Shown here: in pieces, positions 10,300-16,545 of the stretch
Layout: every line of letters starts with the position of its first letter
Numbering within the stretch: position 1 is the first letter of the stretch
From: Candidatus Pyrohabitans jungbluthii
GTDB lineage: Archaea > Hydrothermarchaeota > Hydrothermarchaeia > Hydrothermarchaeales > BMS3B
Assembly: GCA_002010065.2 (NCBI GenBank)
Contig: MTMD02000001.1
Coordinates: 32,001 to 96,000, forward strand
Reading direction: 5' to 3'
Length of the DNA stretch: 64,000 nt
Position numbers and translations under genes: made by a program
Notes under the pieces: generated by a model
What the model saw: the letters and a program-made list of their open reading frames with translations, nothing else
The model's database searches: none
What the model was told of the DNA's origin: nothing

Positions 10300-11913
10300 A
10301 TGATCCTCAGGGGCAATATCGTGGACGTGAAGAGGGGTGAAGTATATGCCGGAGAGGTGGTTTTTGAGGGAGGAGTTATCAGAGAGGTGCGCGAGACCAG
10401 AGGAGAGTTCTCCAGCTACATTCTTCCCGGGCTGATTGATGCGCACATCCACATAGAGAGCAGCATGCTCGTGCCCAGCCGCTTCGCTGAGGTGGCGGCA
10501 ACGCACGGCACTGTCGCTGTCGTTGCTGATCCCCATGAGATAGCCAACGTTCTCGGCATCGCAGGCATTGAGTACATGATACGCGACGCCTCTCATGTGC
10601 CGCTGAAGTTTTACTTCACCGCCCCCTCGTGCGTGCCTGCAACGCCTTTTGAAACCTCCGGCGCCAGGCTGGGCGTAGAAGAGGTTGCCTCGCTGCTCGC
10701 CCGAGAGGAGATTGTCGCCCTTGGAGAGGTGATGAACTATCCGGGTGTAGTTGCCCGCGACCCTGAGGTAATGGCCAAGCTGAATGCCACTAAGAAGCTG
10801 GGCAAACCCATAGACGGCCACTGCCCAGGACTTAGAGGCGAAGCACTGCGCAGCTATGTGGAGGCTGGGATAAGCACAGAGCACGAGTGCACATCGCTGG
10901 AAGAGGCGGAGGAAAAGGCAAAGCTCGGGATGAAGATAATGCTCCGCGAGGGCAGCAGCGCAAAAAACCTTAAAGCACTGGCTCGCTTCAAAGGTGAGGC
11001 TTTTCTTGTGAGCGACGACGTCCATGCCAAAGACCTGCTCCGCGGGCATGTGAATTACCTGCTCAGGCGAGCGGTTGAAGAGGGAATGGACGAGGTTGAG
11101 GCTGTGAGGAGGGCATCGCTTTACCCTGCAAAGCACTACCGCTTAAACGTGGGGATGCTGCGCGAGGGCGATACCGCTGACATCGTCGTGGTTCGCGACC
11201 TGCGCAGCTTCACCTGCATAGAGTGCTACATCAACGGCACCCTCGTGGCGGCGCGGGGAAAGGCGCTCTTCGAAGCTTCACCGCTTGAAGGCGAGAATAC
11301 AGTAAAGGCAAGCCTTAAATCTCCTGAGGACTTCCGAATACAGGCGAAAAAAGCTAGCCCAAAGGTTAGGGTGATAAGGGTTGTACCCGGGGAGATAGTC
11401 ACCGACGTTGAGATTGCCGAAATTCCCGGGAGAGAGATTAAAGCCATGCCTGAGCGGGACATTCTCAAGCTTGCGGTGGTGGAGCGCTACGGTGGCAATG
11501 GCGTTGCAACTGCACTGGTTAAAGGCTTCGGGTTGAAGAAAGGAGCCATAGCCTCGAGCATCGCTCACGACTCCCACAACATAATCGCCGTTGCCGCTAC
11601 CGATGAGGACCTGGCGGAGGCAGTGAATCAGGTTATACGCATGCACGGCGGCATTGCTGTTGTTGCGCATGGAGAAGTGCTCGCATCGCTGGCGCTGCCC
11701 ATCGCAGGATTAATGAGCCCTGAGCCTGCTCAGCAGGTGGCTGAGAGGATGGAGAAGCTCAACCAGGCAGCACGTAGCCTTGGCTGCACCCTCGAAGCAC
11801 CGATAATGGCGCTTTCCTTCCTGGCGCTGCCCGTGATACCAAAGCTGAAGCTCACCGATCGCGGTCTCTTCGACGTGGAGAGATTCGAGTTCGTGGAGCT
11901 GGAGGTGCAGTAA
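10300..11913 (+). CDS. ade: adenine deaminase
   Basis: PGLIDAHIHIESSM, DPHEIANV, GEVMN and AHDSHN motifs; ATG at 10300 follows GGAGG. Confidence 0.94.
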   Translation: MILRGNIVDVKRGEVYAGEVVFEGGVIREVRETRGEFSSYILPGLIDAHIHIESSMLVPSRFAEVAATHGTVAVVADPHEIANVLGIAGIEYMIRDASHVPLKFYFTAPSCVPATPFETSGARLGVEEVASLLAREEIVALGEVMNYPGVVARDPEVMAKLNATKKLGKPIDGHCPGLRGEALRSYVEAGISTEHECTSLEEAEEKAKLGMKIMLREGSSAKNLKALARFKGEAFLVSDDVHAKDLLRGHVNYLLRRAVEEGMDEVEAVRRASLYPAKHYRLNVGMLREGDTADIVVVRDLRSFTCIECYINGTLVAARGKALFEASPLEGENTVKASLKSPEDFRIQAKKASPKVRVIRVVPGEIVTDVEIAEIPGREIKAMPERDILKLAVVERYGGNGVATALVKGFGLKKGAIASSIAHDSHNIIAVAATDEDLAEAVNQVIRMHGGIAVVAHGEVLASLALPIAGLMSPEPAQQVAERMEKLNQAARSLGCTLEAPIMALSFLALPVIPKLKLTDRGLFDVERFEFVELEVQ

Positions 11914-12004
11914 GCTCACAACTCTATATTACTTTACATTGTTATAAGTTACTTTCGAACTTTAAAGTTATATGAGACCTCTTTGGGAAGTGTGGTGATT
12001 CGAC

Positions 12005-12478
12005 ATGAAAATAGGTGAAGCGCTGGCGAGGACCAAGCTGCTAAAGAACAAGTTGGTTGAGCTGCAGAAGCTTCAGAGGAGGACATTTTTTGTCGAGGAG
12101 GGCAAAACAAAGGAGGCAAACTTTGATGAGCTCGATAGAGAGCTATCCAAAGTAATGGAGGAGCTACGAGAACTGAAGCTGAAAATACAGAGAGCCAATC
12201 TCAACACCTACATAGAGTGGAAAGGAAGGAAGATATCTCTAGCTGAGGCAATCCTTATAATAGGAGACCTACGCTCACAACTCGCCCATCTCGACGCGCT
12301 AGAGACAGATTCTAAGTTCGGTATCAGAAGCCTCTTCGACAGAAAGACTAAGGATGAGGTGGAATACCTGCCCCAGAAGTCCAGAGTGGAGCTACTAGAG
12401 CTGAAAAAGAAACTGGAAGCTGAAAAGACAGCACTCGACAATCTGGTGCAGAGCACCAACTGGAGGACGGAAATATAG
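12005..12478 (+). CDS. DIP1984-like helical coiled-coil protein
   Basis: MKIGEAL start, internal ISLAEAI, KIQRAN and terminal DNLVQSTNWRTEI match the family pattern (MKLAEAL...IQxxNW). Confidence 0.75.
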   Translation: MKIGEALARTKLLKNKLVELQKLQRRTFFVEEGKTKEANFDELDRELSKVMEELRELKLKIQRANLNTYIEWKGRKISLAEAILIIGDLRSQLAHLDALETDSKFGIRSLFDRKTKDEVEYLPQKSRVELLELKKKLEAEKTALDNLVQSTNWRTEI

Positions 12479-12667
12479 CTCATCTCTTCATAGAGATGAG
12501 GCGCGGGTATGGAGGTGCCTAGTGGGGCTCCAGCTGCCGTGGAAGGCAAGAGGTGCGTGCTGTGAGGCGACGCCTTAAGGTTCAGCGATTAAGGGTCAGT
12601 GCACCTTCAAGGCTCACCGCTCAGGGCTCAACCGCCACCATGAGGCTCCTCCACCCGCTGCTTTTTT
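12479..12667 (+). ncRNA. putative structured non-coding RNA with 7-nt periodic motifs, downstream of the DIP1984-like gene
   Basis: 9-bp hairpin 12479-12500; long closing helix 12501-12528/12634-12661; internal helices; eight TYA heptads; T6 tract at the 3' end. Confidence 0.6.
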
Positions 12668-12700
12668 GCATAAATGCAGAGGATTTGGAACTAGCTACCT

Positions 12701-13209
12701 CTACCTCCCCATGTACTCCTCCAGCTTCCCCTCCGCCTGCTTCCTCTTACACCATTCGCGCAGGGTTTCCCTCTCACCGAGGTACTTATAGTAGGGCACG
12801 CCGTAACCGCAGCTTGTCATTACCTCCTGTATGTGCAGCAGGATTATCTGCCTCGCATAGGAGGGCACCTCCAGCTTCATCCTGGCCATTAAGCCTCTTC
12901 TCTCAGCCTCCTCAAGGGAGAGCACCTCTCCCCTGCAGTACAGGCGGAGAACCATCGGCTTGGCGTCGAAGCTGCAGAACATCACCGTAACCATTCCCCC
13001 TGGGCTATGTGCCTCGCTGTCTCATTGCCGCTTCCCGGGTAGTCGATGTAGGCCACGGTTTTGCTGTCGATTACCGAGAAGGTTTTGTACCCCTTCGGAG
13101 AAATGTTAACCCTCCCTCCATCGGGAGGAGCAGAGGCGACGAAGAATATCCTCTGAGCCTCAATGAATCTTTTCAGCTCCTCATTCAGCTCCGGGTAGAA
13201 TTCCGCCAT
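12701..13209 (-). pseudogene. pyridoxamine 5'-phosphate oxidase-like FMN-binding protein split by a 1-nt frameshift
   Basis: FFVASAP...NISPKG...GSGNET (13209-12982) continues as VTVMFCSFD...SCGYGVP in another frame; break at a G5 run near 12996-13000. Confidence 0.8.
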
Positions 13210-13414: not shown

Positions 13415-13639
13415 ATGGGCACGAAAACTATATCTCTCTCCGAGGAAGCCTACAGATTGCTGAAAGAGGCAAAACTTCCAGGCGAAAGCTTTTCGGATGT
13501 TGTGAAGAGGATGATTAAAAAGAGGCCTCTATCAAGTTTTGCTGGCTTATGGGCGGAGCTGGAAGATGAGAAGATAGAAGAAATTAAAAAATTAATCAAA
13601 ATTGAAAGGGAGATTTCTGATAAAAAATGGGGGTACTGA
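13415..13639 (+). CDS. vapB: VapB-type antitoxin (DUF217-like)
   Basis: KTISLSEEAYRLL...ESFSDVVKR; directly upstream of a PIN gene. Confidence 0.88.
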   Translation: MGTKTISLSEEAYRLLKEAKLPGESFSDVVKRMIKKRPLSSFAGLWAELEDEKIEEIKKLIKIEREISDKKWGY

Positions 13640-13642
13640 ATT

Positions 13643-14029
13643 GTGGTGGTTCTTGAAACTGACTTCCTAATAGATCTTCTCAAAGGTGAGGAGTATGCTG
13701 TAACCAAAGCCAGAGAAATTGACGAATCTGGAGAACCAAAATTCGTCACGCCTGTTTCAGCCACAGAGTTTCTCATTGGTGCCCACTATATTGGTGGTAA
13801 ATATCTTAAAGCCGCCATGGAACTTTTGTCTTCACTTGAAATCCTTGAGTTTGACTTGGAAGCATGTTATGTGGCTGGTGAAATAGGCGCCACTCTTGCA
13901 AAAGAGGGCAAGCACATAGGTGTAGCAGATACCATGATCGCGGGCATAGTAAAGAGACATGGAGAAAAGCTGCTCACGAGAGATGAGAATTACTCGCGAG
14001 TTAAAGGGCTCGTGGTGGAGAGGTATTAA
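13643..14029 (+). CDS. vapC: PIN-domain toxin VapC
   Basis: VLETDFLID, E, DTMIAG and LLTRD acidic PIN motifs. Confidence 0.9.
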   Translation: MVVLETDFLIDLLKGEEYAVTKAREIDESGEPKFVTPVSATEFLIGAHYIGGKYLKAAMELLSSLEILEFDLEACYVAGEIGATLAKEGKHIGVADTMIAGIVKRHGEKLLTRDENYSRVKGLVVERY

Positions 14030-14232: not shown

Positions 14233-14709
14233 GTGAGCATAACACAAAAATTGGCTATTCTATATGCTATCCTTATAACTCTCGGCACCGCAGGTGCGCA
14301 GATGATGGGAGGCTATGGAGAAGGCGGCTATTACGGAATGATGGGCGCTCCCGGTTATGGGTTTGAGCCCAACACAAGTTACTACTCCTATCGGGGCTAT
14401 CAAACCTATCCCTACGGGTATGGTGGTATGCCCATGGGTGGTTATGGTATGATGGGCGGTATGATGCCAATGATGGGTGGCTATGGTGGTTATGGAATGA
14501 TGGGAGCTTATCCGGGCTATGGGATGGGCTACTCTGGTGGCTGGTTCCTGCTGCTTCTTCTCATAGCCGTGGCAGCGGTTCTAATTTACTACGCAAGGGG
14601 TAAAGAAGCAGCCCCTTCGAGTGCAAAAGATATCCTGGACATGAGGCTGGCTAAAGGCGAGATAACCCAGGAGGAGTACCAGAAGCTCAGAGAGGTGATT
14701 GAGGGATGA
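14233..14709 (+). CDS. Gly/Met/Tyr-rich membrane protein with C-terminal SHOCT domain
   Basis: Signal-like N-terminus, GMMG/GYG repeats, TM helix, ILDMRLAKGEITQEEY. Confidence 0.8.
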   Translation: MSITQKLAILYAILITLGTAGAQMMGGYGEGGYYGMMGAPGYGFEPNTSYYSYRGYQTYPYGYGGMPMGGYGMMGGMMPMMGGYGGYGMMGAYPGYGMGYSGGWFLLLLLIAVAAVLIYYARGKEAAPSSAKDILDMRLAKGEITQEEYQKLREVIEG

Positions 14710-15272
14710 AAAAGGGCATCGCAATAATAATCGCAGCGGTTCTCGTATTCCTCGCTATTGGCTTGTACAACCAGTACTCATACTACAGGGCGGCTCCATT
14801 CTATGGCGGTGGAGGGATGATGATGGGCACACCTTATCCGGGGGCACAGCCCGGCTATGTGCAGCCAGCGCCGCAGATACAGTTCTCCTCAAACGGTGAG
14901 ATGATCTATTATACTGGCGTCAACAAGAGGGGAGAGCGTATTGTGCCCAGGTTCGGTGGACCCATGTGGCTCTATATGCACGGCGGAAGCTGTGTATCCT
15001 GCCACGGTGAGGACGGCAGAGGTGGCAAGCCAGTGATGATGTGCTCTGAGGTTCCGCCGGACATAAGGTACAGTGCGCTAACCAGCGAGGAGATGGAGCA
15101 CGAAGAGGGCGAAGAGCACCCGCCCTATAACGAGACCACGATAAAGCGGGCAATAACTCAGGGTTTAAACCCCGCCGGCGAAGAGCTTGATCCGTGCATG
15201 CCCAGATGGGCAATAAGCGAGAATGACCTGAACGACTTAATTCTCTTCCTTAAGGAGCTTGACAGGAGGTGA
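14706..15272 (+). CDS. membrane-anchored monoheme c-type cytochrome
   Basis: CVSCH heme motif, distal MPRW, N-terminal TM helix. Confidence 0.85.
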   Translation: MKKGIAIIIAAVLVFLAIGLYNQYSYYRAAPFYGGGGMMMGTPYPGAQPGYVQPAPQIQFSSNGEMIYYTGVNKRGERIVPRFGGPMWLYMHGGSCVSCHGEDGRGGKPVMMCSEVPPDIRYSALTSEEMEHEEGEEHPPYNETTIKRAITQGLNPAGEELDPCMPRWAISENDLNDLILFLKELDRR

Positions 15273-15511
15273 ATAATATGGCGACGAAAAACGATAAGCT
15301 TGTGGCTGGAATTATCCTGACGGTGGTTGGCTTGCTTGGTCTCAGCTCAGGCGGAATGATGGGCTATGCAGGCATGGGCGGCATGATGGGTGGCTACGGG
15401 ATGATGGGCGGCTACGGCATGGGCTTTGGGTTCTTCCCACTGCTGATCAGTGCGGTATTTCTGGGCATAACTCTATTCGGGGTCTACCTGATATACGAGG
15501 CAGTGAAGTGA
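15269..15511 (+). CDS. small 2-TM protein with GMMG-repeat loop
   Basis: TM-GGMMG repeats-TM; GGAGGTG RBS suggests ATG at 15278. Confidence 0.7.
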   Translation: MNNMATKNDKLVAGIILTVVGLLGLSSGGMMGYAGMGGMMGGYGMMGGYGMGFGFFPLLISAVFLGITLFGVYLIYEAVK

Positions 15512-15765: not shown

Positions 15766-16545
15766 TCACCTCCCCACCTTCACCTCCATGAAGCCGAAGC
15801 CAAGGGAGTTGCGTTCCCCGAAGCCGGCGTCTAAGCCGAACTGCAAAAGCTCACGCTGCTCCCTCGTTAAATGCGAGAAGTGAAACTCCCACAGAGAGGC
15901 GAACACCTTTACCTCGCGGTTTTTGATGAGCAGGTGATTGCACACCTGCTTCCTGAACACAAACTGCTGGAAGAGCGGGAGGTAGCGCTCTTCTTCCACA
16001 TCAGCGCCCAGAAAATGTTTGTACTTCTTAATCAGGTTATCCTCAAGCTGGCGCAGGAAGGCTTCGAAGGCTATGTTGGGACGCCAGTAAACGTAGGCGT
16101 GCTCGCTGCGTATGCCGTACTTAGCATAGCTCCTCTTTGGGATGCGCACTATAATGGGTGTTCTGGTGACAAGCGCGACGCTATGCTTAACCTTCGGGCG
16201 GGCTATCCTAATCTCTCTAAGATAGAAGCGCATATTGCCGAGGTTTACAACCTCTCGCTCCAGAAGCGACTCTGCAAAGGTGCGGATAAGCTCATTGTCG
16301 GGTGAAGAGATTGCCACGTAGCGCGTGTCGCCCTCGCCAATATCGAAGGGCGAGTAGATGTTGGAAAAGCAGAAGTACTTGTAACCTCTGGCGTCGTGGA
16401 GGTGCTCGTAGGCGGTGCCCCTCAGAAGGCTGTACACAAAGCCCTGGAGCTTGGCATGGTAGCGCAGGTCGTAAGCGTAGTCGCCGGCGCTCTCAAGCGT
16501 GAGTATCAGCCTGCTTATCTTCCACCCCTCCCATCTCGGCTGCAA
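15766..16545 (-). CDS. cas6: CRISPR-associated endoribonuclease Cas6 (orphan in this window)
   Basis: LHD..GYKYFCFS, ISSP, TRTPI and C-terminal G-rich loop GFGERNSLGFG. Confidence 0.92.
   Translation of the reverse strand: MQPRWEGWKISRLILTLESAGDYAYDLRYHAKLQGFVYSLLRGTAYEHLHDARGYKYFCFSNIYSPFDIGEGDTRYVAISSPDNELIRTFAESLLEREVVNLGNMRFYLREIRIARPKVKHSVALVTRTPIIVRIPKRSYAKYGIRSEHAYVYWRPNIAFEAFLRQLEDNLIKKYKHFLGADVEEERYLPLFQQFVFRKQVCNHLLIKNREVKVFASLWEFHFSHLTREQRELLQFGLDAGFGERNSLGFGFMEVKVGR

Follow-up and report, generated by a model that had tools for sequence, protein, structure and literature searches.

In the TRAP/trp leader system and in sponges of the CsrA/CsrB type, an RNA presents many copies of a short word, and an oligomeric protein engages each copy with one of its subunits or sites. 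Type III toxin-antitoxin systems (ToxIN, CptIN, TenpIN) have a protein gene and a repeat RNA side by side, the repeats binding the protein; there the repeat RNA is upstream of the toxin gene, with a terminator between the two, the repeats are ~34-36 nucleotides (nt) long, and the toxin is an endoribonuclease. In excerpts of the published account of HutP, this protein is an oligomeric (hexameric) reader of XAG words that are separated by 4-nt spacers, three words to a cluster with a 7-nt step; its RNA holds two such clusters with a linker between them, bound on two symmetry-related faces so that the RNA wraps the protein, and this target begins just past the hutP stop codon (PMC2425495). Here we analyse a 64,000-nt stretch of the genome of the archaeon Candidatus Pyrohabitans jungbluthii (contig MTMD02000001.1 of assembly GCA_002010065.2, positions 32,001 to 96,000; hereafter the window, whose own numbering we use), in which a gene of the DUF6847/DIP1984 family is followed by a structured RNA with two sets of four 7-nt units. 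Our analyses indicate that the RNA is conserved together with the gene, and that the pair probably functions as a protein-RNA particle of a kind not described so far.

The gene (12005-12478, plus strand, stop codon TAG at 12476-12478) encodes a protein of 157 amino acids with the DUF6847/DIP1984 fold, i.e. four long helices and a beta-hairpin. H0, a perfect 9-base-pair (bp) hairpin CTCATCTCT-TCAT-AGAGATGAG (12479-12500), starts at the first base past the stop codon and is followed by the 5′ arm of a closing stem, P1 (GCGGGU-AU-GGAGG-U-GCCU-A-GUGG-GGC, 12503-12528), whose 3′ arm lies at 12634-12661. Both arms are recognised from sequence, fold and covariation, and the stem, of ~22 bp in the window, pairs 12503-12528 with 12634-12658 through GCGGGT/ACCCGC, GGAGG/CCTCC, GCCT/AGGC, GTGG/CCAT and GGC/GCC. 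Enclosed by P1 are an internal hairpin UGCC-GUGGAA-GGCA (12535-12548; from sequence and fold, with at least one hairpin of varying size and sequence at this place in homologues); three xGAyG-type pentads, UGCUG UGAGG CGACG (12558-12572), which lead into the heptad array and align with UGAUG GGAUG UGAUG of the homologues; heptads 1-4, UUAAGGU UCAGCGA UUAAGGG UCAGUGC (12575-12602, with starts at 12575, 12582, 12589 and 12596); four inserted nucleotides, ACCU (12603-12606), in the middle of the array, where it is variable, an insertion that is absent from most homologues; and heptads 5-8, UCAAGGC UCACCGC UCAGGGC UCAACCG (12607-12634, with starts at 12607, 12614, 12621 and 12628). A T6 tract (12662-12667) is a candidate transcription end, and from general knowledge of archaeal oligo-T terminators we take it to be the likely one. 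All of these parts are on the plus strand and give a structured RNA of ~185 nt, in which the heptad/pentad platform of ~75 nt is predicted to be unpaired.

An earlier, sequence-only reading of the window had listed the hairpin, the closing helix, the inner helices, the heptad starts and the T6 tract, all of which are present, and had noted that the heptads have TYA at positions 1-3 and, in seven of the eight, G at position 6, which the sequence bears out. It had also drawn a helix between AGGTGC (12551-12556) and GCACCT (12601-12606). The two segments are able to pair in the window; this pairing is not conserved, and its 3′ half falls within the heptad-4 insertion, which is missing from most homologues. 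Folded as the plus strand, 12479-12670 has an energy of -92.2 kcal/mol against -73.1 +/- 5.0 kcal/mol for shuffled sequence (z = -3.85; none of 200 shuffles as good), and identity at a lag of 7 nt is 0.47 against 0.24 +/- 0.06 (none of 2000 shuffles reaching the observed value). Fold energy and periodicity in the window alone are suggestive, not decisive, and it is comparison with relatives that shows that the heptads and the structure are not a product of chance.

A word-indexed protein search found only six relatives of the window protein, four of which (P0002-P0005) are 71-84% identical to it and stand outside the DNA-level comparison. Scans with an alignment of those proteins gave 18 loci, 3 of them from genomes and 15 from metagenomes, whose homologues are ~35-46% identical. 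The whole element is present at 15 of these 18 loci; at one the contig ends inside the RNA and at another inside the gene. Three of the 18 are duplicates or near-duplicates of others, and together with four more loci from genome searches the scanned loci yield 17 distinct full elements. In all 17 the element lies 63-207 nt behind a homologue of 149-159 amino acids and ~40% protein identity, on the same strand. Past the stop codons of these genes we find a recurrent design, namely a hairpin CUUAUCU..AGAUAAG, arms that can pair across 150-250 nt, a UGAUG-GGAUG-UGAUG-CC block, and eight units of the type UUAAAGA. Specifically, a hairpin of the CUUAUCU..AGAUAAG type occurs 0-21 nt past the stop codon in 14 of the 17 loci, in a search confined to the first 25 nt past the stop, and T-rich runs occur either after the 3′ arm or inside it. 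Thus, as the sequence-only reading had supposed, a structured RNA follows the gene, the same element being found at 17/17 readable archaeal loci with covarying H0 and P1 helices.

Two of the scanned loci merit separate description. At L016 (3001-3450) an archaeal-type metagenome gene is truncated past approximately residue 125 and the RNA is absent; this is a decayed copy, in keeping with joint loss of gene and RNA. At L015 (1265-1412) an extra open reading frame (ORF) of ~48 codons lies between the DUF6847 stop codon and H0, with a likeness by eye to the AbrB/SpoVT-type fold; the start of the RNA is therefore not always at the stop codon.

A sequence-only covariance model of the core scores the window copy at 47.5 bits and finds nothing else credible in the window's genome. 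When applied to 151 genomes of one DPANN phylum, this model gave four matches at E <= 1e-4, three of which lie just downstream of a homologue. The other, L038 (22 bits), is a false positive that has no homologue upstream and falls inside coding-like sequence. In a 401-genome sample of that phylum, the Pfam model PF20935 scored over its cut-off in six genomes, with the RNA downstream in five of the six. Taken together, these comparisons, which draw on a homologue sample that is modest and consists in part of short metagenome contigs, show that what lies downstream is a structured RNA of the plus strand, conserved and linked to the DUF6847/DIP1984 family.

The element had been thought absent from described RNA families, and searches of Rfam 15 agree. 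The whole window at gathering scores has no relevant match, the interval 12300-12800 at E <= 10 has just a chance long non-coding RNA match of 7.5 bits, 13 homologous loci have no match at gathering scores, and seven of these have none at E <= 0.5; loci from bacteria and phages return only tRNAs and weak microRNA or plastid matches. Among the viral contigs of IMG/VR neither the window protein nor the core consensus pattern was found. At the level of titles and the opening parts of abstracts, the literature describes no RNA for DIP1984, DUF6847, PF20935, septicolysin, Gp157 or Agatevirus genes. No RNA run was listed as covering 11950-12700, and three metatranscriptome runs from the same study placed nothing on 11800-12800, results that are neutral on expression.

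Covariation was counted in 14 full-element rows in which the pairs of H0 and outer P1 were written explicitly (275 cells). RNAalifold predicted no pairs on a first, gappy alignment, and it was the trimmed full-element rows that were used for the pair counts. Of the cells of H0 and P1, 93.8% pair, compared to 81.3% in partner shuffles (0/500 of which reach the observed value), and 16 of the 22 pairs show compensatory change on both sides. For H0 the figures are 93.9% of cells and compensatory change in 4/9 pairs, H0 being conserved in sequence as well as in structure; for outer P1 both sides change in 12 of 13 pairs across the 14 loci. The rows are related to one another, which means that the shuffle control overstates significance, and two further controls are the fairer tests. 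When the partner is slid by 1-3 columns, pairing falls to 32-54%. When the 5′ flank of each locus is instead paired with 3′ flanks, the duplex with its own 3′ flank has a mean energy of -37.3 kcal/mol versus -24.5 kcal/mol for flanks of different loci, and among the 17 candidate 3′ flanks the one from the same locus ranks first at 9/17 loci and no lower than third at 15/17. The helix cells contain 30 G·U and 3 A·C combinations, which argues that the helices work on the gene's strand, as plus-strand RNA.

The periodicity check extends to the homologues. Among periods of 5-9 nt, period 7 is the best in all 17 archaeal loci (z from 1.8 to 8.1, with z = 3.4 for the window). Aligned homologues keep U1 and A3 in every heptad unit, and G6 is strongest in units 1, 5 and 7. 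Across the 13 aligned rows, heptads 5-8 always have T at position 1 and A at position 3, and the pentad bases G12569 and G12572 are likewise invariant. Most homologues have eight contiguous heptads, and insertions, of 3-13 nt, fall only at the fourth unit. U1, A3 and G6 are retained both in a thermophile-like copy of 59% guanine plus cytosine (G+C) and in copies of 26-41% G+C. We also considered a fold-back of the two half-arrays on each other (UUAA on UUAA) and rejected it; 71.4% of positions pair compared to 72.0% in shuffles, and compensatory changes are absent. Because the half-arrays pair no better than shuffles, the heptads are conserved as words and not as base pairs, which fits a tandem array of binding sites, the interpretation already preferred from the window sequence, better than it fits a microsatellite or a helix. 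No conserved CUGA partner for the pentads, as a box C/D or K-turn reading would have, was found in the archaeal class.

More distant relatives of the gene carry an RNA of the same layout with a different word. A tblastn search of plasmids with P0001 at E <= 1e-3 and with P0097 gave no matches; relaxed to E <= 10, the search with the window protein gave three weak matches, in Bacillus badius and Paenibacillus polymyxa, and with the Paenibacillus protein as query we found a third plasmid and nine Bacillus phage records (phiAGATE, Bobb, SDFMU_Pbc, Bp8p-C/T). The phiAGATE protein gp045 scores 33.5 bits, over the PF20935 cut-off. Five loci of this class were read, from Bacillus and Paenibacillus megaplasmids and Agatevirus phages, and in all five the order of parts is gene, hairpin past the stop, closing stem, inner hairpins, array, closing stem. 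The element is downstream of the gene and in its orientation at 17/17 archaeal and 5/5 Bacillota and phage loci. The closing stem is GGGUAAG...CUUACCC plus a U-run in pSC2 and GUAGAAGAGGAAAA...UUUUCUUCCUCUUCUAC in phiAGATE. In the array ACG recurs every 7 or 8 nt (word NNNNACG; the spacings in pSC2 are 7, 7, 7, 8, 8, 7 and 4), and period 7 is the best in four of the five loci. The heptad word therefore differs by protein clade, being UYAARG in archaea and NNNNACG in Bacillota and phages, a pattern that fits recognition of the RNA by the protein. At one of these loci, L049 on a Bacillus badius plasmid (1501-2022), the gene is apparently frameshifted at an A-run near codon 135, its C-terminal helix resuming in another frame to a stop at ~2020; the RNA downstream is intact.

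In Paenibacillus plasmids and Agatevirus phages the cassette sits among tRNA genes (L050 1248-1330 and 2780-2864; L051 280-3542; L052 1000-1081 and 2315-2399; L053 686-3547). In Paenibacillus thiaminolyticus (L052) a tRNA begins 9 nt past the 3′ arm of the RNA, which suggests shared transcription and processing. This bears on a different explanation for the element, namely that it is a cis-acting 3′ untranslated region (UTR) or terminator that is read by host factors (an RNA-binding protein, a nuclease or an archaeal K-turn binder) and sets the stability or processing of the messenger. Such a role would suit an element that spans the distance from stop codon to T-run, the conservation of H0 in both sequence and structure, as would be expected of a processing or protection site, and the P. 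thiaminolyticus arrangement, in which tRNA-processing enzymes would cut at the end of the RNA. It would also suit the gene for an NYN-domain protein, a predicted nuclease, that is found directly upstream on the same strand in 3 of the 13 loci with enough upstream sequence (L004 79-651, L010 2196-2792 and L013 765-1376; Pfam 6.5e-18 to 9.4e-23) and whose product may be an optional third component. However, a word read by host factors should not switch along with the clade of the linked protein, and the module is intact across very different hosts, with G+C contents from 26% to 59%, which indicates that the partner travels along, the gene being the sole constant partner. A platform of ~75 nt with eleven ordered words would also seem to exceed what known stability elements need. 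We regard this explanation as unlikely.

A third class is formed by canonical DIP1984 genes. A canonical DPANN protein used as query matched 367 plasmid records, 339 of them from Acinetobacter, and we read seven plasmid loci (L054-L060, from Picosynechococcus, Acinetobacter, Enterococcus, Psychrobacter, Paracoccus, Mycobacterium and Streptomyces). In the six with annotation, 270-620 nt without an annotated gene lie behind the DIP1984 gene. Blocks near GGCGAG and ACCAYRYRCUGA are common to all seven, and RNAalifold on four of the loci gives a 14-pair closing stem, 8 of the pairs with compensatory change, with a K-turn-like bracket inside. Rfam has no match to the canonical 3′ element. Both actinobacterial copies hold GGTTCGACTCCC, which resembles a tRNA T-arm. 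We treat the canonical class as a lead.

The window protein is, as the sequence-only reading had it, DIP1984-like. It matches PF20935 (DUF6847) over residues 13-157 at 43.4 bits against a cut-off of 27 (4.4e-11), and reaches 55.5 bits with NCBIfam NF038048 (DIP1984_fam), under the curated cut-off of 70; it is a relative outside this named subfamily, on an archaeal branch. With 92 homologues as input, AlphaFold2 gives a model whose predicted local distance difference test score (pLDDT) is 93.7. When compared to the Protein Data Bank (PDB) with Foldseek this model has chain A of 3KDQ, a crystal structure released in 2009, as its sole significant match (E 4.4e-6; template modelling (TM) scores 0.82/0.84), other chains giving none at E <= 0.001; the PDB match at the level of sequence is weak (3KDQ, E 3.7e-4). 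Look-alikes of the fold include the Siphovirus Gp157 family and phage clusters, and a BFVD fold search gave phage matches that are all weak. No nuclease or toxin family was matched in Pfam, NCBIfam or PADLOC, the PADLOC scan giving just a chance Cas2 match (E 0.054). A HEPN-like Rx4H motif (R90..H95) was considered and ruled out, as the histidine is Q or K in close homologues. In a model of self-association with four copies the protein scores 0.72, compared to 0.00 for three controls; at least 73% of the contacts are common to the runs, and partner pLDDT is 80 or higher. In calibration, 20 of 30 proteins whose structures were solved as pairs attained the mark for self-association, against 1 of 23 whose structures were of single chains. 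The predicted interface is symmetric, forms between two copies and involves helices 2 and 3, so that the protein is predicted to be a two-fold symmetric dimer.

Comparison with related genomes indicates that gene and RNA move as a unit. The RNA is single-copy in the window's genome and the gene is present in 1 of 38 genomes of the phylum. In three genomes of the same genus (G002-G004) the adenine deaminase and PNPOx-like genes that flank the cassette in the window are convergent and 1-10 nt apart, with no spacer, and in the nearest relative (G001) the deaminase stop is directly followed by just the 3′ arm with its T-run and the spacer that comes next. The cassette begins with an A+T-rich leader (11914-12004, plus strand) that has a TATA-like TTTAAAGTTATAT and a GGTGA ribosome-binding site, presumed to be the promoter and 5′ UTR; it is absent from G001-G004, in which other sequence stands directly behind the adenine deaminase stop. 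The cassette is an accessory, mobile indel between two convergent genes. Under the following history or some variant of it, the lineage that the window's genome shares with G001 acquired ~720-790 nt (leader, gene and RNA), most of which G001 then lost; the last step of the indel is either an insertion in the window's lineage or a deletion in G001. The adenine deaminase gene ends in codons, TGGAGGTGCAGTAAGCTC (11897-11915), that resemble the 5′ arm of P1, TGGAGGTGCCTAGTGGGGCTC (12510-12531), with 9 identical bases and then AGT..GCTC, which may be a trace of the insertion or loss of the cassette.

An indel that lies exactly between two convergent genes, and that consists of a gene and then an imperfect inverted repeat in the manner of an integron cassette, is also what an element acting as DNA would look like, be it double- or single-stranded (origin iterons, an attC-like recombination site or a single-strand origin), and the phage-type look-alikes of the protein would be in keeping with such a role. 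We consider this very improbable. The ratio of 30 G·U to 3 A·C cells places the helices on one strand only, which excludes a duplex site, and the orientation of the gene is kept throughout the archaeal (17/17) and the Bacillota and phage loci (5/5), with a T-run at the end. Unlike attC sites, which are found with many gene families, the element goes with a single one; it is present once in the genome, and its 7-bp step mismatches the helical repeat of DNA. Indeed, all true matches of the core model are found behind DUF6847 homologues and the genome has no other copies, which separates the element from attC sites.

The surroundings of the cassette in the window are those of an accessory region, and its proximity to vapBC, pointed out in the sequence-only reading, is upheld. 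A vapB/vapC pair (13415-14029, plus strand; VAPB_antitox 1.2e-14, PIN 1.2e-15) and cas6 (15766-16545, minus strand; Cas_Cas6_C 5.5e-17) are each within 4 kb of the cassette, and in other loci a YhcG/DUF1016 nuclease gene lies beside it. These neighbours are relevant to the proposal that gene and RNA form a type III-like toxin/RNA-antitoxin pair, in which the free protein would be harmful, repeat RNA from the same transcript would sequester it, and the whole would be an addiction or abortive-infection module. The cassette is small and self-contained and comes and goes between close relatives; vapBC and a locus of clustered regularly interspaced short palindromic repeats (CRISPR) and Cas genes adjoin it in the window, as nuclease genes (YhcG/DUF1016, NYN) do elsewhere; short repeats stand in tandem in the RNA; and self-association is predicted for the protein. 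Against this, the RNA follows the gene and its repeats are 7 nt long, where ToxIN-type systems have the RNA first, repeats of ~34-36 nt and an endoribonuclease toxin; the protein matches no nuclease or toxin family; and the same layout occurs in tRNA clusters of virulent-type Bacillus myophages, an unexpected place for an addiction module. We therefore think the proposal, which the sequence-only reading had offered as one option, quite unlikely.

Other features of this region can be described briefly. The PNPOx-like gene (12701-13209, minus strand) consists of two overlapping ORFs (12982-13209 and 12701-12994) split at a C/G homopolymer run, and is either a frameshifted pseudogene or an assembly error; in G001 the corresponding ORF is intact and encodes 171 amino acids (L002 961-1476). 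Beside that gene in G001, L002 694-876 translates as a repeated QNKANVGLK and looks like a CRISPR array read as protein. Two small plus-strand ORFs in the window (14233-14709 and 15269-15511) have GYGMMGG-type repeated motifs and a hydrophobic segment, with a CxxCH ORF (14706-15272) between them, and may encode metal-related membrane proteins.

On balance we favour a reading in which 11914-12667 is a horizontally acquired module of a gene and a 3′ RNA whose encoded protein reads the heptads and forms a ribonucleoprotein particle with them. One transcript would carry both the DUF6847/DIP1984-fold gene and the structured 3′ RNA, and the protein encoded just upstream would read the heptads with their fixed 7-nt step. 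Through the closing stem the two sets of heptads, 1-4 and 5-8, would come to lie side by side, the turn falling at the tolerant fourth unit, and a dyad-symmetric dimer would offer two antiparallel binding tracks, such that several dimers could zip the antiparallel half-arrays into one defined particle. This particle may be the functional unit itself or may feed back on the fate of its own messenger. Since gene, hairpin and stem are constant and the words depend on the clade, the simplest reading is that the DUF6847 protein is the heptad reader.

Several points weigh against this reading. We infer from sequence the transcription of the module, its co-transcription and its 3′ end, and likewise the binding of RNA by the protein, the stoichiometry, which the sequence-only reading put at one subunit to a heptad, and the biological role; the sole structural relative of the protein, 3KDQ, carries no assigned function, and no known RNA-binding family was matched in the Pfam, NCBIfam and PADLOC scans. 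A host factor, e.g. the NYN-domain nuclease, could read the heptads instead. The calibration of self-association used two copies and the job for the window protein four, and the predicted dimer may echo the solved 3KDQ crystal, which holds four chains. The 7-nt periodicity in the window alone is moderate and not exceptional for the genome, the same lag-7 value being reached at 171 other places in its 2 Mb. The sixth DPANN match to PF20935 is a high-scoring canonical DUF6847 gene with no recognisable element downstream, and the link between gene and RNA is therefore not universal in the form that we modelled. Finally, in the canonical class heptad periodicity is not established, period 7 having been the best in one of four loci in a first test and in four of seven after the regions were re-cut.

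A broader version of the particle model, about which we are doubtful, would hold that the whole DIP1984/DUF6847 superfamily is the protein half of a hitherto unseen class of mobile ribonucleoprotein particles, each clade with its cognate 3′ RNA, that act in RNA conflicts. It would take in the 'septicolysin' genes of Acinetobacter plasmids, the phage family found in tRNA clusters and the archaeal branch. The platform would show approximately eight 7-nt units, the size of an anticodon loop, and dimers would zip the half-arrays into a rod, the particle being, for example, a decoy or sensor for loop-cutting nucleases. If true, such a role would explain why cassettes occur among the tRNA genes of phages and megaplasmids and in archaeal defence islands.

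Irrespective of this broader version, the conserved structured RNA joined to the gene gives DUF6847/DIP1984, a family that is common on plasmids, its first lead to a function. The elements make up at least one RNA family, and probably three related families, that Rfam 15 lacks, with an unusual unpaired platform of 7-nt words inside a covarying stem. The clade-dependent word amounts to a natural specificity experiment for protein-RNA recognition, and the occurrence of the layout across archaea, bacteria and virulent-type phages points to a portable function over lineage-specific regulation.

How, then, does the module compare with known systems? TRAP, with its 2-3-nt spacers, and CsrB, with GGA in hairpin loops, have other folds, words and spacing than the system in the window, and in neither system is the RNA constantly attached, within a mobile cassette, to the 3′ side of the gene for its protein. 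Relative to type III toxin-antitoxin systems, gene and RNA stand in the opposite order, the repeats measure 7 nt, and the ToxN/AbiQ, CptN and TenpN families are unmatched in Pfam, NCBIfam and PADLOC; membership by layout or by protein family is ruled out, given that the RNA is downstream of the gene in all archaeal (17/17) and all Bacillota and phage loci (5/5). Canonical DIP1984 or 'septicolysin' proteins (3KDQ, NF038048, DUF6847) share the fold and Pfam family of the window protein and also have a conserved non-coding block 3′ of the gene, although with another word and core sequence in the RNA; published work is said to handle these genes as plasmid cargo of unknown role.

Heptamer repeats are also found elsewhere. 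The direct repeats of TAACTGA in Beggiatoaceae, Cyanobacteria and Bacteroidetes are, in the excerpted parts of their description, exact repeats of one heptamer that are scattered over ~169 sites in each genome and for the most part stand shortly before start codons, and those parts mention neither an enclosing structure nor a linked gene family (PMC4679880). The heptads in the window, in contrast, have fixed and free positions and occur once per genome, inside a covarying stem behind one gene family.

As far as the HutP excerpts go, the closest analogue is HutP and the hut terminator of Bacillus subtilis, in which, as here, two clusters of words with a 7-nt spacing lie just 3′ of the protein's own gene. 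The likeness is one of mechanism and not of membership, as the window protein matches only DUF6847 in Pfam, and the fold and family of HutP are unrelated. In the same excerpts the HutP RNA has 3+3 words, whereas the element in the window has 4+4 heptads and three pentads inside a long covarying stem. HutP is there described as antiterminating the hut genes downstream; the RNA in the window, in contrast, ends its transcription unit, because the next gene is usually convergent, as it is in the window and in at least six other loci (L003, L004, L008, L013, L018 and L044).

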